A DNA stretch of 64,000 bases from Candidatus Melainabacteria bacterium (GTDB taxonomy: Bacteria > Cyanobacteriota > Vampirovibrionia > LMEP-6097): assembly GCA_005110385.1 (NCBI GenBank), contig DUDT01000021.1:45420-109419 (forward strand), read 5' to 3'. The notes beneath the pieces were generated by a model. That model had not been told where the DNA came from, searched no databases, and was given only the letters and a program-made list of their open reading frames with translations. This document shows, piece after piece, positions 2,840 through 13,703 of the stretch. The translations under genes and the position numbers were made by a program. Each line of letters starts with the position of its first letter. Positions within the stretch are counted from its first letter, which is position 1.

Positions 2840-5800
2840 TTATTCGACAGCTGCCTCCATTTCATATCTAGAAGTATCATTAATATATTTTTCCCAATCC
2901 CAGTTACTAGCTTCAAACATTTGCATAATGTAAAGTAGAATAGCTATTTCTTGAATGCTTTTTCCTTCTACCCCTATGCTACGTATGTTAGTTGTTTGAT
3001 CTGCTTTACTACTAAGTGCAAAATTAGCAAGAGTAGCACTAGGAATGGGGGTGGCTCCAGTGTATTTTGCGGGATTTATTGCGTCACCTATGCTACGACG
3101 CTCAGCCAGGATTTCTAATCTTAGGTTGGTATTAGGGTAGTTATTAGTACCGTAAGTAATCCCCATTCCAGCGTCTACTAAACTTGGGTGATTAGGGATA
3201 AGAGTAGCTGGATTCTCCGCTACTGCCTTGGCAATTAGTAGAGCATCAGGTATTCCACCAGTTTCACCCAGCAGATTTTTAATCATTATTCTATAGAGAC
3301 CCCCTTCTTTAGGACGCGGTGGTGCTGCTGCTTCTGCTGCTGCGAGTGCTGTGAGTAGAGTGTCAATGTTATTAACAATTTTTTCATAAGGATTAGCTAA
3401 GACTGGAACACCAGCTATAATCGTTCCGAAGTTTTTAAATGAGTTACTGCCGACACGGCTAGGTAGATTAGGAGGAACTGGCAAAGGAACTGGTTCGTCA
3501 TATGTAATTTCTGTTGCGGTATCGGTTCCAAAGATATTAACTCCAAAAACCGGTAAGTTACTGTTATCTAAAGGCCTACCAAAACGGTCTTGATTAGGAG
3601 GGATGGGAACAAGAACTCTAGTATCATTTGTGATAGCTGTAAATGCAAGACCAGTAGGATAAAAAATATTCTGGTGAAAATAATTCTTTAATTCTGATGC
3701 AGATAAATTCTCATCGATTCTTTGCCCTAAGCCTTTACCCGATGTTCTGAGATCATCAAGAGTTTCAAGTTTGCTTTTATTGACTACTACTGCTGCCCTT
3801 GAGGCTTTAAGAAAGGCGTTTATTGTCGAGGGGTCTGTACCACCACCTTCTTGAATATGGTCTAAGATATTTATATCTGCTTCAAGACTATCTTTTCCTC
3901 CTAAAGCACCATCGGCAATAACTGAGAAAGAGTTATTTTTTAACCATAGGTCAAAAACTTTAAGCTGTTGTTTAATGACGGGGCTTTTAGAGGCTTGCAT
4001 ATCTTTATAAACTTCATTTAAAGCAACAAGGAAATCACGAGCTTTTGTTAATCCAGATGTAGTACCTACCGTAGTAAACGGTGGAAAATCTCCAGGCGCT
4101 ATTTTAGTTGCTAATAATGCTTGTATATTCCAGCCTTGATTACCAGTTGTGGCTGGTGCTATATTAGGACCACTGATGGAAAGAGGGTTTGCTGGGTCTA
4201 AATATTGCAGATTAGCCTCATAGCCGCTGTATTGATATAATCCATCTTTAGGTGCACTAACTGGTCTATGCATTAAATCTATAATTTGAGTATCAGTTTT
4301 AATTTGTCTTCTATTAAATATCTTTAGTAATCCTGCTTCAAAATCATCACTTGTTGTTGTTTGATTTTCGATTTGAGTCAATAGATGAAGAGTCGAGTAG
4401 ACTTCTGATTCTGGTCCAGTTTTAGGTTTTTTAATTTCACTTGCTAAAGACACCTCTAAGGCATTTATATTTTCAGTTATTGGTGCTAATTCTTTTACGG
4501 TTGTGACTATGGCTTGAAACTCTGGAGAGTTGATAATGCCAGTTGGACTAGTGTCGCTAGCTAGAGATTCTATGTATTGCGTGAGAGTCTGAGCGGGAGG
4601 GGGAGGGGTACCAGGGAATACTAAAGCTGGAGTTACAAAAGCAGCGAGTGAAGGATTTTCCGGAGTACCACCAGAAAGTGTATTAAAAAGTACATTAAAA
4701 TGCTGCATTTTGCGAACATAGAGTTTTTTATTTTCGATGGTAAATTTACTATCTGCAGGAGGGCCAACAAATCTCATTTGAAATTCTAAGTCGCTTAAGG
4801 AATTAGGGAAGCCGAGATTAGTATCAGGATTAGTAGTAACATTACCAAGTGCGTCAAGATAGTCGCCTGCAGCATTGCGAAAAGCAACATCACCACCTGT
4901 AAAATCTTTATCACATCCCATTATTTCTCTCAGCGTGAAGGAGTCAGCTTTAGAGTTATCTACTGTACTGTTGAGGGCTAAGGGATTTGTTGATGCTGTA
5001 AGATCGTCAAGGCGAGTGATGGCTGGATTATTAATATCAGCGTCAGTGTCTGGAGGGTAAGCGTAAGTCGTTACAGGGCTGATCAGGTTTTTATATCTAA
5101 TGTGGTTTTTTATACCCGATGCACCCGTGAGAGTATAGCTATCTGGATAGGGCGGACCAGCTGCATCGGTTATTGGTTGTCCTTCTAGGAAAAACTCTAA
5201 AAGCTCTTTTCTTGCTGCTTTAATATCTGCTTGATTTGCAGGAGGGAGACTAGTAAGTGGTAATAAACCCACATCGGAATCAATAAGCCTCTGTTTTATA
5301 GTAGTTCTTTCTACTGCATCTAATTCTAATGGGTTAATGCCTGTCCAAACGGTGCTGAGGGGATTTTTAAGTTCAGTAAAATTAAGTTGAGCACGTGAAT
5401 TTAGTGAGAGTATTGGATCATTTGCTAGGGTGATATCTCTAGGAGGTGTTTCATTTTTGGCATTATTTAAATTGGTTTGAAAGTCACTAATAAAAGTCTC
5501 AATATTTCCAATATGTGTTTGGAATGTATCTATAGTGGTAATGCTCGTTAAATTAGATGGTAAAGCAGGAATCAGATTAGCTGGATCTAACGCACTGTAA
5601 GTGGTAGGAACAAGTAAATTACGATAAGGATTTAAAAGATTCGTTCTATCTAGATTGCTGATTAATACTTCACCAATCTTTTTTTGAGGGACGAGAATAT
5701 CTGAGATCAGTAAGCCATCCAGTAACTCTTCTCTCGCTTTTATAACAGCTTCGGCTTTCGCTCTATCAGCGGCGTTACCTCCGTCATCATCAGTTCTTAA

Positions 5801-8800
5801 AAGAAAAGCCATAGGCACTGTAGAAGCAGGTGGACCAGCTTCATATACATTTGCATCTAAAATTGCGTTATAGGCTACAGTAGTACCAGCAGAATCAGTA
5901 GTAAGATCGGTGAAGTTAAGTTTTGCCTTATTAATTTCAGAGAGTATGGGATCTGTTCCTATATTGACGATTCTTGGTGGTGTCTCGGTTGTGCTTGCGT
6001 TGAGCATAGCAGTTATATTCGCAGCTAAGGTACCTAAAGTATTTAAAAGATTATCTGGTACATCTACTGGAACGACATTGGTGGTTGGTAGAGAATATGT
6101 TACACCCTCAATGGTATAGTTAGATCCGTTAATAGAGAATCTTCCATCTCTGATGTCATTTATTAGGTTTTGTTGGTTAGGTGATAGTGAAGTGAAATTG
6201 AGATAACCAGGGGCATTACCTGCAGGGGGATAAGCCAGCGCACTTAGCGCATTAAGATCCACACCATTGAGTAGATTCTTTAAGGTGAGCAGCGAGCCAG
6301 TTGGGCTGAAGCTATTTAGTTTACCTTGAAGGTTTGTTAATTCAGTAAGGGTTCTATCATCTATAAAGACCATGCGCCTAGGTCTACTTCCATCTGCATC
6401 CGTTTCCTTGATAAGGGTTTGCATCGCTGTTTCTATCTGACCTGAGATCAATGAACCTACTGCAGAGACGTCTACGCTAAGGCTTCCTGTTGATATTTTA
6501 GAGATTTGTTTCAGAATATTGGTTAAATATGTCTGCGATTCTGCTGATCCAGATAGGTTCGTAGCGGTCATATCTATATTTCCTACGTTTGTGCCACCTC
6601 TGCTAACATTGTTAATACCAACAACGTCATTCTCTGCGACAAGGTCATTAACCTTATTTACTAATACTTGACCAAGTTTAGTAACTAAGATTGAGCTGCT
6701 CAAAGCTGCCATTAAAGGCTTTGGTACGCCTTTATCTTCTGGCATTGAGCCATCTGGACCTGGTTCTGATTTTTTTGCATTGAGAGAAGTATAATTTTGT
6801 TTATCTGCTTCGAAAACTTCACCAGCATAGATCTTTTCGAAAGCACTGTTTTGAGAGAATTTAGAATAATCATCAAAAGTATTTATTAAATAACTAATCT
6901 GTTGAAGACTATTTTCAGGACTCGCAGCGTTGGTTTTAGTATCTTCATGCATCTCAAGAAAACTCTTTACTAATGCAGGGCTTGGCTTATCTCCATAACC
7001 AGCAATGGAAGTCTGTAGAGTTAGTGTAACATCTAGCCCTGTATTAGGGTCGATTACGTTCGAGCTTGTTGGTCTTGGAATCTTAGGTACATCCTGTTCA
7101 ACTGATGAAACACGATCTTTCATATTATCGATGATTTTATCTAATGATTTATAGAGTTGAATTGCTCTGGAGAAATTCGTCTGATCACTCAGATCCCCGA
7201 ATATAGCAGATTCGCTTCCAGCGGTAAAGCCTGCTGTTGTCCAGCTTGGATAAGTTCCAAGAATAGTAGGGTCAGTAAGAAAACTACCCATCTCATTATA
7301 TAGAGTAGATAAATTATTTGTGATTACGAACGGAATCTCATCGCTTAAATAAGTCCTTATGTGCTTAGTTAATGCTAATTTAGTGGCTTTAAAGAACTGA
7401 TCAAAATCCCGGACATCCATGATTGGAAAACCTGCTGGTAAACCATTTTTGGCATCAGTACCATTAAGGGTATTATTGGCTTCATCACTACCACTGATGG
7501 GAGGATTGTTTGCAGGATCATAATAGTACATAGCAGGCAAGAATTTATCTTTAGTGTTCGCCCAAGCATTAGGTAAGAAATGTTTGCTAGGATCTGCTGG
7601 ATTAGGTGAAAGACCATAATCTTCCTTTCTAACAGCAGTTTGATTAAATAGATCTAAGGTAAATTGGCTTTCTGCAGATTCAGGAATACCTCTTATAAGA
7701 GTGTTTTTGATTTGAGAAGTTATATCATCTACTGATGAATTTATATTTTGGAATAATGATTTTTGAACCTCGGCATTTTCTCCGGTGGTTTTTAGTAATT
7801 TTCCTGAAAATAAATCGACTAGGGTCCTTTTATCTTCTACATAGCGACTTGCGGTAATGTCGAAATTTTCAAGAAATAAATCCATTAATTGCGTCATTTG
7901 CGTATTCACAGGATCTACAGAGCTTCGTAAATATCCTGATGGAGCGACATCATCTAGAAGTTTCTTAAATTCAACTACAATTTTTTTCCCCTTAGTTGCT
8001 GGATCATCAACTTCTTGAATGTAAGGGTTTTGCGATGGTTCTAAGTTATTCAGAGCTTCATGAATTAAGAAGTTCTTCGTAGATATTGCAGCATCCTTTT
8101 TCCCAAACGTGGAAGTTATGGAGGCATTAATATAAGATTGAGTGTAATATTGGGTAATCCTCTCAACATAATTAGGATTAGCTGTAGTATTCCAGTTTGT
8201 TAATGTAGCATTGACGTCGGCGGGAATAAGACCAGTCGCATTAGAAATTAAACTCGTTAAAGTTCCTGGCTCAGTAGGTTTAAAGACACCGTAAGAACCA
8301 TCATAATTACTATAGTCTATTGTGCCGTTAGTGGATTTACTGAGGAAAAAAGACGGCGGTGTAGGTAAACTTGCAGTACTTAAATTGCGAGATGGTGCTG
8401 GGACACTGTCATACCAAGCTTTACTCTCTGTGAAATAATTACCAGCGATACTTTTGAGGCTATTGCGAGCTGCTTGAGCAGTTATATTATTAAGATTTCT
8501 AATACTATTAGAATCTGCAAAGGTAACAGACCCTACCAGTTTTTGCTGAGTAATTGCTATTGCGACCATGTCATAGAAAACTTCTTCAGGATCTCTTAGT
8601 CCGGCTGGGTCATTCCAGTAAGGACTATTCGGATCAATCCGCTTATTTTGATAATTATAAAGATCTTGTTTGTATGCTGCGTCAGTTGTTCCACCAGGGT
8701 AGTCATCAGGATCAGGAACATTTTCTACAGCCCCAAAGACAGGCAATTTTTTATTACCTATAAGATAAAATTCAGGCTGTTTGTAAGAATCATGGACAGC

Positions 8801-9481
8801 TTCATCATCTAGTGTATTGGGATCATCGACTGCACTGTTGTCATTGTAAAAATTATCACCGTCATCAAGTAGTTCTGCTACACCTTCTATATTAATGTTA
8901 ATGTTAAGAGCAGAATTATTGTCTATAGTCTTAGTGGAATCAATTTCATCGGATGCCGCATCGACCATTTTAAAAGCAGCTGTGCCGACTGTATTGAAAA
9001 AAACATCTTTATCAAGAATGTTAATAGGTGAGCCCGAAGCACCGTTATACCACTGTTCATATTTCCAAGTGCCGCCGAATTGATCTTTAGGGGCTGTAGG
9101 GGCTTTTGATATATCGGTTATACTATCATTTAGAGTACTTGAAAAAAGATTAGTAAGACCGGCTTTTAAACTCGCTGAGACATCTGTCTGTTGTAATCTT
9201 CCCTGTAACTCTAAATTAATCTCTCTTAGCCTGTCTGCGACAGGTTGGAAATAATAAGTAGTACCTTTATCCCAGAAGGCCCCCTGACTATTTGCTACTT
9301 GAAAGGGTTTTAAAGTTTCTACAGTACCATCATCAAGAATTAACTGTTTATCCTTAATGGTTTCAGATGAAAAAAGTCCGTCTAAATAGGAAACTATATC
9401 TTGACTTTGCTTATCAAGATTATTAAGCGACGTTGAAACTACGTCCTTAGTTTCATATGGATTAATAAACGGTGTTGACAT
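2840..9481 (-). CDS. Giant hypothetical protein (2213 aa) with degenerate ~178-aa internal repeats
   Basis: Uninterrupted 6.6-kb ORF rich in P/D/N/T/S. No domain or signal peptide recognised. Confidence 0.85.
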   Translation of the reverse strand: MSTPFINPYETKDVVSTSLNNLDKQSQDIVSYLDGLFSSETIKDKQLILDDGTVETLKPFQVANSQGAFWDKGTTYYFQPVADRLREINLELQGRLQQTDVSASLKAGLTNLFSSTLNDSITDISKAPTAPKDQFGGTWKYEQWYNGASGSPINILDKDVFFNTVGTAAFKMVDAASDEIDSTKTIDNNSALNININIEGVAELLDDGDNFYNDNSAVDDPNTLDDEAVHDSYKQPEFYLIGNKKLPVFGAVENVPDPDDYPGGTTDAAYKQDLYNYQNKRIDPNSPYWNDPAGLRDPEEVFYDMVAIAITQQKLVGSVTFADSNSIRNLNNITAQAARNSLKSIAGNYFTESKAWYDSVPAPSRNLSTASLPTPPSFFLSKSTNGTIDYSNYDGSYGVFKPTEPGTLTSLISNATGLIPADVNATLTNWNTTANPNYVERITQYYTQSYINASITSTFGKKDAAISTKNFLIHEALNNLEPSQNPYIQEVDDPATKGKKIVVEFKKLLDDVAPSGYLRSSVDPVNTQMTQLMDLFLENFDITASRYVEDKRTLVDLFSGKLLKTTGENAEVQKSLFQNINSSVDDITSQIKNTLIRGIPESAESQFTLDLFNQTAVRKEDYGLSPNPADPSKHFLPNAWANTKDKFLPAMYYYDPANNPPISGSDEANNTLNGTDAKNGLPAGFPIMDVRDFDQFFKATKLALTKHIRTYLSDEIPFVITNNLSTLYNEMGSFLTDPTILGTYPSWTTAGFTAGSESAIFGDLSDQTNFSRAIQLYKSLDKIIDNMKDRVSSVEQDVPKIPRPTSSNVIDPNTGLDVTLTLQTSIAGYGDKPSPALVKSFLEMHEDTKTNAASPENSLQQISYLINTFDDYSKFSQNSAFEKIYAGEVFEADKQNYTSLNAKKSEPGPDGSMPEDKGVPKPLMAALSSSILVTKLGQVLVNKVNDLVAENDVVGINNVSRGGTNVGNIDMTATNLSGSAESQTYLTNILKQISKISTGSLSVDVSAVGSLISGQIETAMQTLIKETDADGSRPRRMVFIDDRTLTELTNLQGKLNSFSPTGSLLTLKNLLNGVDLNALSALAYPPAGNAPGYLNFTSLSPNQQNLINDIRDGRFSINGSNYTIEGVTYSLPTTNVVPVDVPDNLLNTLGTLAANITAMLNASTTETPPRIVNIGTDPILSEINKAKLNFTDLTTDSAGTTVAYNAILDANVYEAGPPASTVPMAFLLRTDDDGGNAADRAKAEAVIKAREELLDGLLISDILVPQKKIGEVLISNLDRTNLLNPYRNLLVPTTYSALDPANLIPALPSNLTSITTIDTFQTHIGNIETFISDFQTNLNNAKNETPPRDITLANDPILSLNSRAQLNFTELKNPLSTVWTGINPLELDAVERTTIKQRLIDSDVGLLPLTSLPPANQADIKAARKELLEFFLEGQPITDAAGPPYPDSYTLTGASGIKNHIRYKNLISPVTTYAYPPDTDADINNPAITRLDDLTASTNPLALNSTVDNSKADSFTLREIMGCDKDFTGGDVAFRNAAGDYLDALGNVTTNPDTNLGFPNSLSDLEFQMRFVGPPADSKFTIENKKLYVRKMQHFNVLFNTLSGGTPENPSLAAFVTPALVFPGTPPPPAQTLTQYIESLASDTSPTGIINSPEFQAIVTTVKELAPITENINALEVSLASEIKKPKTGPESEVYSTLHLLTQIENQTTTSDDFEAGLLKIFNRRQIKTDTQIIDLMHRPVSAPKDGLYQYSGYEANLQYLDPANPLSISGPNIAPATTGNQGWNIQALLATKIAPGDFPPFTTVGTTSGLTKARDFLVALNEVYKDMQASKSPVIKQQLKVFDLWLKNNSFSVIADGALGGKDSLEADINILDHIQEGGGTDPSTINAFLKASRAAVVVNKSKLETLDDLRTSGKGLGQRIDENLSASELKNYFHQNIFYPTGLAFTAITNDTRVLVPIPPNQDRFGRPLDNSNLPVFGVNIFGTDTATEITYDEPVPLPVPPNLPSRVGSNSFKNFGTIIAGVPVLANPYEKIVNNIDTLLTALAAAEAAAPPRPKEGGLYRIMIKNLLGETGGIPDALLIAKAVAENPATLIPNHPSLVDAGMGITYGTNNYPNTNLRLEILAERRSIGDAINPAKYTGATPIPSATLANFALSSKADQTTNIRSIGVEGKSIQEIAILLYIMQMFEASNWDWEKYINDTSRYEMEAAVE

Positions 9482-9515: not shown

Positions 9516-10310
9516 TCAGGTTAAAATCCCTTGTTGTCTAAAATTCAAAAGTAAAGTTTGGATTTTCTGGTTAGTATCCAGTCTTTCTTTCTCTTTAATA
9601 TTAAATTTATCCGTGAATTTTTCATATAAATCTCCGAGTCCTATGCCATATCGTAAATTATCAACTAAAAAATAGCTCCCAGGGGACAGCAGGAAATACC
9701 TTACCTTATCCTGTTTATCTCTGAAAATCAGTAAAGTTTCTTTCTGCTTTTTAAAGAAAGTGATATTATAAATTTTTCGTTTGCTATTTAAATGCTCGAC
9801 GATTTTACTTATTGGATAATCAAATTTAAAAATCTTGTGAGCCTTTATTAACTTAACGTAGTCTCCTTCACTTAAATCTTTTTTTCTTTGGGTAATTGTA
9901 AGATCCTGTGGATGAAAGTTAAAAAGATCTAATTCAGCCCATTCATATTCTGCTAATTCGTTTAACCACTTTGGAAAGTTTGCATTTCTAAATTTCATTT
10001 TAAATTTTAAACTTTTCAAATATTCGGAAAAATTTTTGGTTATTTGAAGATAAATGGCTGATTTACTTGGGAAGTTATGATAAAAATCGACGATGATTTC
10101 CCCCCAATAATCTTTAAGAATCTTGAAACAGAGTGGGAAACTTTGTTTCATTGTGATATTTATTTTTTCTAAAGCTAGGCTCTTATAAATACTAAGCTCC
10201 TTCTGTGTTTGCAGGGAAAGGATTTTAGGGTCAGCAGTTTTACCCATAAAGTATTTTTTTATTTCTTGCTGAATTTGATAAAGCTTTGCCATTAAAAGAT
10301 ATTTTCCCAA
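9516..10310 (-). CDS. DUF2063/HvfC-type MNIO partner protein (RRE-like). True start may be the ATG at 10292.
   Basis: LSIYKSL..MKQSFPLCFKIL, F..Y..P.W..ELAEYEWAELD, F.FDYPI and LLIFRD motifs, directly downstream of DUF692. Confidence 0.85.
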   Translation of the reverse strand: MGKYLLMAKLYQIQQEIKKYFMGKTADPKILSLQTQKELSIYKSLALEKINITMKQSFPLCFKILKDYWGEIIVDFYHNFPSKSAIYLQITKNFSEYLKSLKFKMKFRNANFPKWLNELAEYEWAELDLFNFHPQDLTITQRKKDLSEGDYVKLIKAHKIFKFDYPISKIVEHLNSKRKIYNITFFKKQKETLLIFRDKQDKVRYFLLSPGSYFLVDNLRYGIGLGDLYEKFTDKFNIKEKERLDTNQKIQTLLLNFRQQGILT

Positions 10311-10321
10311 TTTACTTCGGT

Positions 10322-11491
10322 TTATCCTAAATCAGAGAGTTCTTCATTTAAGAAATCTAAGTCATTCGCTAGTTGGTTTTTAATTAGATCATTATCTGCC
10401 ATAATGGCGGGAATCGAGCTAGTAGATGGAATAGCCGCAGGATTGATATTTACATTTGCTGCTTTATTGTCAATTAGGGATGAAGCCGTTCTATTGTTTG
10501 CTTCTGTCTCTAGTGCCACGGGCTCAGTACTAATAATGTTTTCTGTTGGATTAGTTGCAAGCTTAGTCTTTTCAGTTTCGCTTTCTTCTTCTGAATCATA
10601 TTTACTATCCATAATTCCGCGAATTTGTTTTAATTCATAAAGTAACCCAAGGAAACCTTCTTCGGAAAAATTTGCGTCACGTTCTAGTAATACTGCTTTT
10701 ACTTTGGTTTTTTTGATAACGTAAGAAAAAAGATCTAATGCTACGTCAGAAACAGGCTCACTATGTGAATCTAAAACTTTAATACTATGTCCAGTTAATT
10801 TTGATGTATAACCACGTTTAAGTCCACCAAGATGCACCTGTACTACTTTTCTAAGATCTAAATCATCTAGGAATGGCTTCGGCAGATATTTATGATTAAT
10901 AGAATTAACCAGAACATTATTAATGTCCAGTAAAAAACCACAGCGAGCCTTTTCTAGTACGAGGTTTATAAAAGTTTGTTCACGAAGTTCACGCAGACCA
11001 TAAGTAGTGTAATAACTAGGATTTTCGAAGAGAAAAGGAATCTGGAAGTAATCTTCGAGATATTTAATATTATTAGCTACTACTTCCGCAGCTTCTTTTG
11101 TAAAAGGTACGGGGATTAGCTCTTGAAAATAATGAGAACCGATTCTGGAATTAACTAAGTGATCGGAAAACCAAGGAGCCTTAATTTCCTGAAAAAGCTC
11201 TTTAAGTCCTTTAAGTAAATAAAAATCAAACTCTAGGCGTTTTTTGTTCTGGGGAGCAGAGCCAATACTTAAATTTACCCCATGAGGAATAAGGGGGATT
11301 CCCTTAGCTAACACCTCTTGGAAGTGCTTGCGAGGTAATCCCCCATTATTAATGTAGTTTTCTGGAATTATTTCCAGCCATTGAATCAGTGTTTGTGTGG
11401 AAGAGGCCTCTAAGTAATTGAGAATATCTTTTTGTATCTCATCTCGGAGTCCAATCCCTAAGCCATAAAATTTAAGCTTATTAGTGAGCAC
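10322..11491 (-). CDS. DUF692 family multinuclear non-heme iron-dependent oxidative enzyme (MNIO) with a ~96-aa C-terminal tail
   Basis: GIGLR, WLEIIPENY, HGVNLSIGS, WFSDHL, FENPSYY, LLDINN, VHLGG, DSH and LLERD motifs. Confidence 0.93.
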   Translation of the reverse strand: MLTNKLKFYGLGIGLRDEIQKDILNYLEASSTQTLIQWLEIIPENYINNGGLPRKHFQEVLAKGIPLIPHGVNLSIGSAPQNKKRLEFDFYLLKGLKELFQEIKAPWFSDHLVNSRIGSHYFQELIPVPFTKEAAEVVANNIKYLEDYFQIPFLFENPSYYTTYGLRELREQTFINLVLEKARCGFLLDINNVLVNSINHKYLPKPFLDDLDLRKVVQVHLGGLKRGYTSKLTGHSIKVLDSHSEPVSDVALDLFSYVIKKTKVKAVLLERDANFSEEGFLGLLYELKQIRGIMDSKYDSEEESETEKTKLATNPTENIISTEPVALETEANNRTASSLIDNKAANVNINPAAIPSTSSIPAIMADNDLIKNQLANDLDFLNEELSDLG

Positions 11492-11708
11492 TCTTCGCTG
11501 GAGCTGTTGTAGCTGGAGCAGCTGGTACAGCAGCAGCCTCTTCAGTTGCTGGCGCTGTTTCAGCAGTAGCTTCTACTTCTTCTACATCAACCGCTTCTAC
11601 TTGATCTTCTACAGTCTCTGGTGCTTTGCTAACGTTACAAGCATTTAGTACGCTTGTGAAACCACAAACAAGAACTAGTGATGTAAAGATTTTTAATAGT
11701 TTATTCAT
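11481..11708 (-). CDS. Small exported lipoprotein-like acidic Ala/Pro-rich peptide, candidate MNIO substrate
   Basis: Strong AAGGAG SD before the ATG, signal-peptide-like N-terminus ending LNAC, 3' end overlaps the MNIO GTG start by 11 nt. Confidence 0.75.
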   Translation of the reverse strand: MNKLLKIFTSLVLVCGFTSVLNACNVSKAPETVEDQVEAVDVEEVEATAETAPATEEAAAVPAAPATTAPAKSAH

Positions 11709-11889
11709 AGATATCTCCTTATCTTTTCTCTAGATATTCTATCCTATCAAGGCTATTCAGCGATTTAAATTTTTTAGAAAAATATGTATTTTGTGTAAAA
11801 TGCTTAGCCACACTGGATTATGATATATTAATATAAGATTAAGTTGTGAAAAACTAGGATTTTCACTTGACCTAGAGGCTTATTTTTTT

Positions 11890-12216
11890 ATGAGTAAACA
11901 AAATAATCATGAAAGTTATTTTGTTCTAGCCTGCCCAAGAGACGATGGCAGGCTCGCTGTTTTATGCAGGAATACTGGCCTGAATCAAGGGCCAGCACTG
12001 TGTGAAAGCAAAAAAGATGCGGTGCGTTTAAAAACCAAATTAGCTAACGATCCTCGCGGACTATCTAATGAAAATGCTGTCGCCATTATTAGAAGTCTTT
12101 ATGTTTACGAGTTGAAGCACGATGTAAAACCAGTCTGGCAGGAGGATTCACTATGGGCCTACCTACCAATAGAATTGGCCAAATGTGTAGAATCACAGGC
12201 TTTTTTTTCAAGATAA
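11890..12216 (+). CDS. Hypothetical protein (108 aa)
   Basis: ATG-start ORF with globular composition, divergent from the MNIO operon. No family recognised. Confidence 0.65.
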   Translation: MSKQNNHESYFVLACPRDDGRLAVLCRNTGLNQGPALCESKKDAVRLKTKLANDPRGLSNENAVAIIRSLYVYELKHDVKPVWQEDSLWAYLPIELAKCVESQAFFSR

Positions 12217-13703
12217 TTTTTAGTAGATTTAAAAATTGCGGCCGCCTCTTTTATATTACTGACCTCGATAATTTTTATTTTTAACTGTACTAAATTCGCT
12301 TTCAATTCTGGAGTTAAGGCTGGGATTATCGCTGTAGTGAAACCCAGCTTCTGAGCTTCTTTTAACCGCAGTTCTATATTACTAACTTGGCGAATTTCTC
12401 CACCTAGGCCTAGTTCACCCAGCGCAATAAAATCATTACAAGACTGCTCGCAAACTCCAATTTCTGCGTTTTCGTCAGGCTGCGCACAAACTCCAATTTC
12501 TGCGTTATCAATAGACGAATCAGGTTTTTCGAGTATTGAAAGTGCGATAGCCAAATCAGAACTTGGTTCTCTAATACTCAGCCCACCTGCAACATTTACA
12601 TAAACATCTTGCTTGCCCAAAGGTATTTTTAAATATTTTTCCATGATGGCTAATATCTGATGCAATCGGGTGAAATCTATACCGTTCGCCATGCGCCTAG
12701 GATTATGCTGCTCAGAATATATAACCAGTGACTGTACTTCCACTAATAAGGCCCTGCGTCCTTCTTTAATAACCGTGACTATGCCACCTGCACGTTGATT
12801 TAAAAAAATCTGTGAAGGATCGCTGACATCACTTAATCCATTTTCTCGCATTTCAAATACAGCTAATTCATCAGTGCTCCCAAAACGATTTTTAATCGAA
12901 CGTAGAATTCGCAAGGACTCATCTTTAATCATTTCGAACTGCAAGACAGTATCCACCATATGTTCTAAAATTTTCGGGCCAGCGATATCACCGTCTTTAT
13001 TTATATGACCGACTATAAAAATCGGCACATTGAAAGTCTTAGCGACTCTAGTAAGATTCGAGCAGCATTCTTTAATCTGCGACACATTACCTGGAACTGA
13101 ATCTAAATTAGGGTTATAAAGAGCTTGTATGCTATCAACTATGATTAAATTAGCTTCTGAGTTTTTAATCGCTTCAAGGATTTTTTCGAGGTTACTCTCT
13201 GTATAAACTAAAATATTCTCCTCATGTTGGGACTGCTCGCAAACTCCAATTTCTGGGTTTTCGTCGTCCTTATGATTTTTATTTAACCGCTTCGCTCGCA
13301 TCTTAAGCTGAGTAGAAGATTCTTCTGCGCTAACATAAAGCACTTTTAATTTTTTTAGACTGAAATAAAAAGCTAGCTGTAATAATAGTGTCGATTTACC
13401 GATACCCGGCTGACCGCCTATAAGATTTACGCTAGCGGGGACTATGCCACCACCAAGAACACGGTTAAATTCTTCTGAGCCTGTATTTAAACGAAGAACA
13501 GAGTCTTCTTTTATTTCACTTAAAAAGAGTAATTCTTCTTCTGAATTTACAAACAGACTATGTTTCACGCCTGTAGCTTTAGTTTTCGTTTTTACTAAAG
13601 CCTCTTTATCTAAACTACCCCAAGCTCCACAACTACTACACTGACCAAAGTAACCATTCGTCTCGTGGCCACAATTACGACAAACCCAGATGAATTTACT
13701 CAT
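12159..13703 (-). CDS. radA: DNA repair protein RadA/Sms carrying three in-frame repeat-derived inserts
   Basis: CxxC-CxxC, GGQPGIGKSTLLLQ Walker A, VDSIQ, KNRFG and Lon-like C-terminal domain. Confidence 0.97.
   Translation of the reverse strand: MSKFIWVCRNCGHETNGYFGQCSSCGAWGSLDKEALVKTKTKATGVKHSLFVNSEEELLFLSEIKEDSVLRLNTGSEEFNRVLGGGIVPASVNLIGGQPGIGKSTLLLQLAFYFSLKKLKVLYVSAEESSTQLKMRAKRLNKNHKDDENPEIGVCEQSQHEENILVYTESNLEKILEAIKNSEANLIIVDSIQALYNPNLDSVPGNVSQIKECCSNLTRVAKTFNVPIFIVGHINKDGDIAGPKILEHMVDTVLQFEMIKDESLRILRSIKNRFGSTDELAVFEMRENGLSDVSDPSQIFLNQRAGGIVTVIKEGRRALLVEVQSLVIYSEQHNPRRMANGIDFTRLHQILAIMEKYLKIPLGKQDVYVNVAGGLSIREPSSDLAIALSILEKPDSSIDNAEIGVCAQPDENAEIGVCEQSCNDFIALGELGLGGEIRQVSNIELRLKEAQKLGFTTAIIPALTPELKANLVQLKIKIIEVSNIKEAAAIFKSTKNYLEKKACDSTHLANSIGR
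12440..12506. repeat. Two tandem partial palindromic elements in frame in radA (NAEIGVCAQP-DENAEIGVCEQS)
   Basis: gactgctcgcaaactccaatttctgcgttttcgtc followed by ggctgcgcacaaactccaatttctgcgtt, both matching the left arm of copy A. Confidence 0.9.
13229..13276. repeat. Partial palindromic element in frame in radA (HKDDENPEIGVCEQS)
   Basis: gggactgctcgcaaactccaatttctgggttttcgtcgtccttatgat aligns ungapped with 665-712. Confidence 0.9.

Follow-up and report, generated by a model that had tools for sequence, protein, structure and literature searches.

Gene content of the cassette and features of its products

The 64,000-nucleotide stretch of Candidatus Melainabacteria DNA analysed here (assembly GCA_005110385.1, contig DUDT01000021.1, positions 45,420 to 109,419; hereafter, the window) carries on its minus strand a three-gene cassette: a 75-aa lipoprotein-type peptide (positions 11708-11481), an MNIO (an oxidative enzyme that depends on multinuclear non-heme iron; 11491-10322) and a DUF2063/HvfC-like partner protein (10310-9516). 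An original prediction from the DNA letters had read these genes as an operon for a peptide made by ribosomes and modified after translation (RiPP), with a non-canonical candidate precursor. All of its features were present on the minus strand, and the profile matches and recurrent gene order described below bear out a RiPP-type MNIO/partner cassette. The peptide ATG is preceded at a distance of 7 nt by an AGGAG Shine-Dalgarno sequence (11715-11719), and the GTG start of the 389-aa MNIO overlaps the last peptide codons by 11 nt. The partner had been placed 11 nt downstream of the MNIO stop, at a TTG (10310); orthologues start instead at the ATG at 10292 (258 aa, 29 nt past the MNIO stop), likely the true start. 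The same peptide-MNIO-partner order was found in every orthologous locus examined, which argues that the arrangement is not due to chance. The three genes are translationally coupled, and no minus-strand terminators were found within the operon.

The peptide (MNKLLKIFTSLVLVCGFTSVLNACNVSKAPETVEDQVEAVDVEEVEATAETAPATEEAAAVPAAPATTAPAKSAH) consists of a predicted signal (residues 1-23) with the lipobox L21-N22-A23-C24, an acidic leader (approximately residues 25-50, including AVDVEEVEA), a variable Ala/Pro/Thr/Glu spacer, and an invariant C-terminal K72-S73-A74-H75. As originally described, it lacks a canonical Cys motif: its two cysteines are C15, in the h-region of the signal, and C24 of the L-N-A-C motif, and the mature part is acidic, rich in Ala, Pro and Thr, and ends in AKSAH. 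Profile searches revealed no EGKCG, HvfA or bufferin signature and matched the peptide to no family, and the other reading frames of its gene held no KCG remnants. Every orthologue keeps the LNAC motif, which follows a K-rich n-region and a hydrophobic h-region; the genome encodes Lgt and LspA, and one further candidate lipoprotein reads L-N-S-C. Lipoprotein maturation of the peptide is thus plausible from sequence. The Cys15-Gly16 dyad, for its part, is specific to the window's genus, with I/L-G or L-S at this position in other genera. A search of 5.8 billion proteins with the peptide retrieved three clusters only, and a metagenome scan 12 loci only.

Upstream of the peptide gene, conservation reaches 91% mean column identity, and the last ~140 nt (11709-11850, including the AGGAG) are near-invariant across the genus, even in two loci (L009 and L098) in which the synonymous divergence (dS) of the flanking genes is saturated. 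The probable role of this stretch, which is not conserved in the two other genera that carry the cassette, is that of a promoter/operator. We also considered a structured leader or riboswitch and rejected it, given no Rfam match and no fold signal (z = 0.76).

The MNIO matches PF05114 (MbnB_TglH_ChrH) with 233.8 bits (cut-off, 25) over residues 11-293, and its catalytic core comprises residues 1-294 (10610-11491). Its nearest NCBIfam families are BufB (203.3; cut-off, 310) and HvfB (191.1; cut-off, 360), both below threshold, with ApyH (69.5; cut-off, 400) and ChrH (44; cut-off, 600) far behind. Since a canonical paralogue encoded on another contig of the same genome (C14; see below) likewise falls short for BufB (227.9) and HvfB (214.4), these sub-threshold scores mostly reflect lineage distance. 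The closest structure is that of an HvfB homologue, 3BWW (E = 2.6e-40), through which the site-3 ligands were mapped to HvfB N175/D242/H244. All nine metal-ligand positions are kept (H70, H111, E156, D189, N192, H220, D241, H243 and E270) and, together with D272, match columns invariant in two sets of 81 and 74 relatives. D272 is equivalent to FonB-D249, the proposed catalytic base (PMC13097082).

Around these ligands, the window enzyme departs from its relatives. In the 49 columns with a conservation of 97% or more among the 81 more distant relatives, these relatives deviate on average 0.11 times and the window MNIO five times (A222G, H224L, T242S, G244S and V251A), always within 30 residues around ligands H220, D241 and H243. 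In the 74 Pseudomonadota MNIOs, the same positions hold A (74/74), H (72/74), T (73/74), G (70/74) and V (67/74). The window protein reads HLGGL and DSHS in place of the H-x-A-G-H and D-T-H-G of its clade, which are 97-100% conserved in the 81 relatives, and R16-D17 in place of a basic Glu-contact residue. The latter site corresponds to FonB-R16, which is reported to contact Glu1 of the substrate motif (PMC13097082), and is R/K in 70 of the 81 and R in 70 of the 74 relatives. We rejected H224L as a lost metal ligand because MbnB and TglH have F and G there, respectively, making this a clade-specific residue.

The last ~95 residues of the MNIO (295-389; 10322-10609) form an extension composed of a fast-evolving, acidic low-complexity linker and a conserved terminal motif, LANDLDFLNEELSDLG. 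As for the partner, its DUF2063 identity is confirmed (PF09836, 29.5 bits; cut-off, 27.2), and its match to the HvfC profile, the nearest in NCBIfam, spans positions 22-234 of 237, albeit with a total score (98) below the cut-off of 142. We describe it as an HvfC-like PME1 partner, with a DUF2063 N-terminal half and a C-terminal half predicted to be similar to a RiPP recognition element (RRE); the NGO1945_C profile scored 19 (cut-off, 27).

Orthologous loci and loss of the Cys core

To describe the orthologous loci, we refer to the window's genus, with more than ten variants, as g1, to its sister genus as g4, to a further genus as g5, and to one single locus as L006. The order conserved in relatives is radA, orf108, lipopeptide, MNIO with C-terminal extension, HvfC, and a giant open reading frame (ORF). 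Peptide conservation beside homologous MNIOs—a check proposed with the original prediction—was thus confirmed: orthologues have in common an N-terminus of the form M-x-K-L-x-K-I-F ... L-N-A-C-N-V, followed by the acidic leader. Their cores, however, differ. In g4 (MNIO 57-63% identical to that of the window), the peptide at the syntenic position, which has its signal, LNAC lipobox and acidic leader in common with that of the window, ends in EHKCGEDHKCGEGKCGQE, its core (...AAEHKCGEDHKCGEGKCGQE) being that of a lipidated oxazolin-type precursor; the window and g4 peptides are homologous over their N-terminal 45 residues. Within g1 (68-91% identity), the core reads ...AP(A/E)KSAH, in L006 (69%) ...AVHEDHHH, and in g5 (55%) ...MEDGMDEMGDNIEHEVEEHHDHH, here with DoxX upstream and a single MNIO in the genome. 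Other genera of the family encode Sec-type peptides with 2-8 (D/E)HKCG / EGKCG repeats, adjoining hisB. The candidate precursor is therefore better described not as a new class but as an orthologue of lipoprotein-type EGKCG (oxazolin-like) precursors in which the Cys core has been lost.

An alignment anchored on the GTG start of the MNIO reveals the fate of this core. Codon by codon, the (A/E)-K-S-A-H-stop of g1 matches the G-K-C-G-Q-E-stop of g4, with TGT changed to AGT, GGA to GCT, CAA to CAC, and GAG to TAA. This correspondence marks the window's KSAH (codons K72-S73-A74-H75, AAG AGT GCT CAC; 11484-11495) as the remnant of the last EGKCG copy, its Cys converted to Ser by one base, while the earlier copies gave way in g1 to the Ala/Pro/Thr/Glu spacer. 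Nucleotides 2-3 of the Ser73 codon are the GT of the MNIO start codon (11491-11489). An origin of the Pro/Ala/Thr tail by recombination with the tail of the Sec-type paralogue was also considered and rejected, as the DNA similarity was of low complexity only and hence uninformative.

In a maximum-likelihood tree, the lipoprotein-type MNIOs are monophyletic (99/99); g5 branches first, followed by g4—with L006 nested within it—as sister to g1. Since all outgroups are Cys-bearing and L006 sits inside the Cys-bearing g4, the simplest reading of the tree is that the Cys core was lost independently at least three times in the lipoprotein clade, each time leaving a different tail. The loss in L006 is recent: a new stop precedes an otherwise intact AAG TGT GGA (K-C-G) remnant, out of frame, and the MNIO is fully canonical. 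In g5 (locus L007:5339-5997, genome G022), the Cys-less lipopeptide has a Met/His/Asp/Glu-rich tail (MEDGMDEMGDNIEHEVEEHHDHH) and lies beside DoxX, MNIO (H243R) and HvfC; this tail looks like an unmodified metal-binding tail in place of thiooxazole motifs. No KCGxxKCG pattern was found anywhere in the g5 genome, in a search limited to the K-C-G-x-x-K-C-G spacing.

At the 49 columns introduced above, the MNIOs of g4 and L006 show no deviation, the other g1 members four to nine, and g5 three, including H243R. The FonB-R16 equivalent is R in g4 and Asp (D17) in g1. Collectively, these alignments indicate that substrate-facing residues of the MNIO were remodelled on the stem of the genus, by the R-to-D exchange and the five substitutions. 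The C-terminal extension is found in both g1 and the Cys-bearing g4, with the motif L(A/E)ND(L/I)DxLxEE(L/F)(S/M)DL in common, and is absent from g5.

Selection on the cassette and its genomic surroundings

We approximated selection by pairwise Nei-Gojobori estimates of ω (the ratio of non-synonymous to synonymous divergence), using the window sequence as reference. The values were 0-0.16 for the peptide, 0.06-0.12 for the MNIO core, and 0.06-0.10 for HvfC, within which the C-terminal, predicted RRE half (0.04-0.08) was the most constrained part, compared with 0.05-0.11 for the N-terminal half. Peptide, MNIO core and HvfC are thus under purifying selection as strong as that on radA (0.05-0.11), whereas values are higher for the MNIO extension (0.3-0.55) and the giant ORF (0.2-0.33). 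The ORFs are intact in at least ten lineages with small genomes (1.8-2.3 Mb).

One sublineage of g1 (P0019-21; loci L012, L142 and L143) departs from this pattern. Its MNIOs carry D189N, D241N, H243P and N274S, and in HvfB, the variants D242A/S and H244A/S are inactive (bioRxiv 10.64898/2026.07.17.739211). Here, the MNIO core accumulated 7-8 non-synonymous versus 4 synonymous changes (ω about 0.5), and in L143 the peptide gene is frameshifted by 1 nt at the lipobox Cys, though this may be an assembly error. The cassette is apparently decaying in these genomes. As this loss of ligands coincides with decay of the whole cassette, catalysis may well be what selection maintains in cassettes whose ligands are intact, such as that of the window.

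As originally stated, no DoxX, extracytoplasmic function (ECF) or other sigma factor, or transporter gene adjoins the cassette, and a search of the whole 1.9-Mb assembly, which is 88.5% complete, returned no DoxX. The flanks are formed by radA and a divergent 108-aa ORF (orf108; 11890-12216) on one side and by a 2213-aa orphan giant ORF (2840-9481) on the other. Of 30 genomes of the family, 28 contain orf108, and where a genus has no lipoprotein cassette, the gene lies 1-3 kb from a giant-ORF homologue. We therefore rejected the giant ORF and orf108 as parts or substrates of the system—both are ancestral neighbours—and the cassette looks to have been inserted between orf108/radA and the giant ORF. 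The 3' ends of orf108 and radA overlap convergently by 58 nt. Within the window's radA, an inserted element family (...DENAEI(G/E)(V/D)CEQS...) occurs in-frame several times (12440-13276).

Relation to known systems and possible activities of the cassette

Set against known MNIO systems, the cassette is close to HvfABC of Haemophilus influenzae (PMC11252979), whose modifications have been reassigned as 5-thiooxazoles (bioRxiv 10.64898/2026.07.17.739211). Like HvfABC, it has the order precursor, MNIO, DUF2063 partner (here with a predicted RRE) and a signal peptide on the precursor; the MNIO retains all ligand positions, its nearest structure is that of an HvfB homologue, and the orthologous g4 peptides carry (E/D)HKCG / EGKCG repeats. 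Unlike HvfABC, the window peptide has K-S-A-H in place of its last EGKCG copy and a lipoprotein-type rather than signal peptidase I (SPase I) signal, while the MNIO shows HLGGL, DSHS and Arg-Asp instead of H-x-A-G-H, D-T-H-G and Arg-Arg, carries the ~95-aa extension, and has no accompanying DoxX; the HvfB, BufB and HvfC cut-offs are all missed. Lipidated oxazolins (DAG-RiPPs) have already been described, for instance NedA of Neisseria dentiae (PMC13056109), which combines an SPase II-type signal and a lipobox Cys with an adjacent MNIO and partner, as the window cassette is predicted to do. The g4 peptides, with lipobox and EGKCG repeats, directly fit this class, which therefore already covers the ancestral state. 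The window peptide differs from it in having no modifiable Cys in its mature part, its own lipidation being predicted from sequence.

Similarities to bufferins and captophorins (BufABC, PMC11626156; FonABC, PMC13097082) include a PME1-dependent MNIO clade, Sec export and the retained base Asp; FonBC, however, does not process Cys-lacking substrate variants, and the window MNIO has Asp at the FonB R16 site. A precedent for chemistry on residues other than Cys, often at the C-terminus, is provided by ApyH (C-terminal Asp), MovX/PflD (Asn) and PbsC (Phe) (PMC12452194, PMC13056109). Yet, these enzymes belong to distant subfamilies with other partner types, while the window MNIO is nested in the HvfB/BufB-like clade. 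A survey of the MNIO landscape chose precursors by their Cys content, and we saw no Cys-less derivatives mentioned there (PMC12452194); nor did we find a report in the literature of an HvfB-like MNIO under selection with a Cys-less cognate peptide. The lineage itself is not devoid of MNIO systems: 158/301 genomes of the class encode an MNIO, and the lipidated type is covered by the DAG-RiPP study above.

Taken together, the cassette of this Vampirovibrionia (Caenarcaniphilales-like) bacterium very probably descends from a lipoprotein-anchored oxazolin/captophorin (EGKCG-type) system and has become Cys-less. As no Cys core is left in the encoded sequence, the canonical Cys-to-5-thiooxazole reaction is excluded on the mature peptide. 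We tentatively favour an MNIO-HvfC pair that would still be catalytically active, with altered specificity, because the ligands and base are kept, constraint is strong, pocket remodelling on the stem accompanies the Cys-to-Ser change, the genes are coupled, and the peptide is conserved. In such a scheme, the peptide would be made abundantly and its conserved acidic leader bound by HvfC; Sec would then export it, Cys24 would receive the lipid, and the product would be displayed as an acidic lipopeptide ending in His. The modification, the single most likely mechanism though less probable than not, would be one of the cassette's own peptide, on a residue other than Cys, at or near the vestigial K-S-A-H C-terminus. 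In its most specific form, a shade more doubtful still, an HvfB-like MNIO would have switched substrate from Cys to the Ser of K-S-A-H or the C-terminal His on the lipid-anchored peptide. Blending the firmer identity claim with this weaker mechanistic commitment, we regard the overall account as somewhat on the probable side.

Several observations weigh against this account. We know of no MNIO that acts on Ser or His, and found no literature on MNIO pseudoenzymes or on Ser/His substrates. With Asn at position -2, the lipobox lies outside the classical consensus (PROSITE PS51257). The invariance of KSAH is confounded, because its codons overlap the MNIO start codon and the purine-rich stretch upstream of it, and the spacer between leader and KSAH varies in both length and sequence. 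Moreover, dS is low over the whole peptide gene (3-5 times below neighbouring genes), and the conservation of single residues is therefore a poor guide to where a modification might be. Eroded enzymes followed the loss of the Cys core in both the ligand-lost sublineage and g5 (H243R). Finally, FonBC no longer processes its substrate when the motif Cys is replaced (PMC13097082).

Two alternatives, each rather unlikely on its own, follow close behind the favoured mechanism: action in trans and a role as escort. The former arises from a second cassette, canonical and of Sec type, on contig C14 of the same genome (about 302.5-304.4 kb; L003:7515-9364). The original prediction had named a canonical Cys precursor elsewhere in the genome as a point against it; one does exist, served by an MNIO and partner of its own. 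This precursor has 81 aa, a Sec signal, the motif EHKCGAGKCGSGKCG and the end ...EEHKCGAGKCGSGKCGKDAKKPTTPAPTTPAPKH, and matches HvfA weakly. The window MNIO-HvfC pair, or HvfC alone, might serve this precursor, with the lipopeptide no longer a substrate. In line with such cross-talk, both cassettes are present in all reasonably complete genomes of the genus, and the C14 partner is short (179 aa), covering the HvfC profile over positions 25-121 of 237 only and lacking the RRE half, which is very strongly constrained in the window HvfC. This short form is kept in a second species of the genus (ω = 0.10) and split in a third by an inserted element (L123:2416-2929, genome G113) that encodes ...DENAEI(G/E)(V/D)CEQS...; the single Sec-type cassettes of other genera, in contrast, have full-length partners (241-267 aa). 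On the other hand, the C14 cassette has its own MNIO (51% identical to that of the window), with all canonical residues and under equal constraint, while the window enzyme lacks the Glu-contact Arg and the H-x-A-G-H histidine, which argues against canonical EGKCG processing. In addition, the lipopeptide is the cassette's most conserved gene and translationally coupled to the MNIO, and g5 retains a Cys-less cassette although the search of its genome returned no KCGxxKCG peptide.

Alternatively, the pair may have been repurposed without catalysis, with MNIO-HvfC acting as a holdase that binds the lipopeptide and escorts it ahead of export by Sec, and the metal site serving folding. This role would fit a mature peptide that has no target Cys, and the conservation of the leader and of HvfC's RRE half; furthermore, HvfC binds HvfA in the absence of HvfB (PMC11252979), and the signal peptide is reported as part of the BufBC recognition sequence (PMC12452194). 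However, an escort alone would not readily account for nine ligands and a catalytic base kept over deep divergence within the genus, nor for the relaxed MNIO constraint and the one frameshifted peptide gene where ligands were lost, a pattern suggesting that catalysis is selected.

It is improbable that the cassette is a slowly decaying relic, redundant beside the canonical one and of no present function. The repeated loss of the Cys core, including the recent truncation in L006, fits this scenario, as do the ligand-lost sublineage (ω about 0.5, frameshifted peptide gene), H243R in g5 and the missed NCBIfam equivalog cut-offs. Against it stand ω values of 0.05-0.12 for all three genes at saturated dS, intact ORFs in the small genomes noted above, and an ultra-conserved promoter/leader region. 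Least probable is a remaining Cys as the MNIO target—the genus-specific Cys15-Gly16 dyad would suit the preference of captophorin MNIOs for Cys-Gly (PMC13097082), and the region recognised in bufferins includes the signal peptide (PMC12452194), but Lgt could not lipidate the lipobox Cys24 once that residue was modified, the segment that contains Cys15 is removed and broken down, the LVLVCGF around Cys15 does not resemble the charged surroundings of EGKCG, and the substrate-contact residues of the MNIO have moved away from the canonical set.

New MNIO chemistry, as first proposed for this locus, may thus still apply, and the remodelled surroundings of the active site together with the ligand-lost sublineage give weight to decay or repurposing as well. 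Activity of the MNIO on the Cys-less peptide, if it exists, would make this locus the first case of non-Cys chemistry within the bufferin/oxazolin MNIO clade, acquired over no more than about 45% divergence in sequence from the canonical enzymes that form thiooxazoles. If it is inactive on the peptide, the locus would represent a clean case of RiPP cassette erosion or repurposing, in which loss of the core precedes that of the enzyme. For genome mining, the example urges caution: a conserved small ORF ahead of an MNIO need not encode its substrate, and the genome should be checked for a second cassette. For the enzyme family, the natural series from Cys-bearing g4 via the just-truncated L006 and the remodelled g1 to the decaying, ligand-lost forms could serve to map the residues that determine MNIO specificity.

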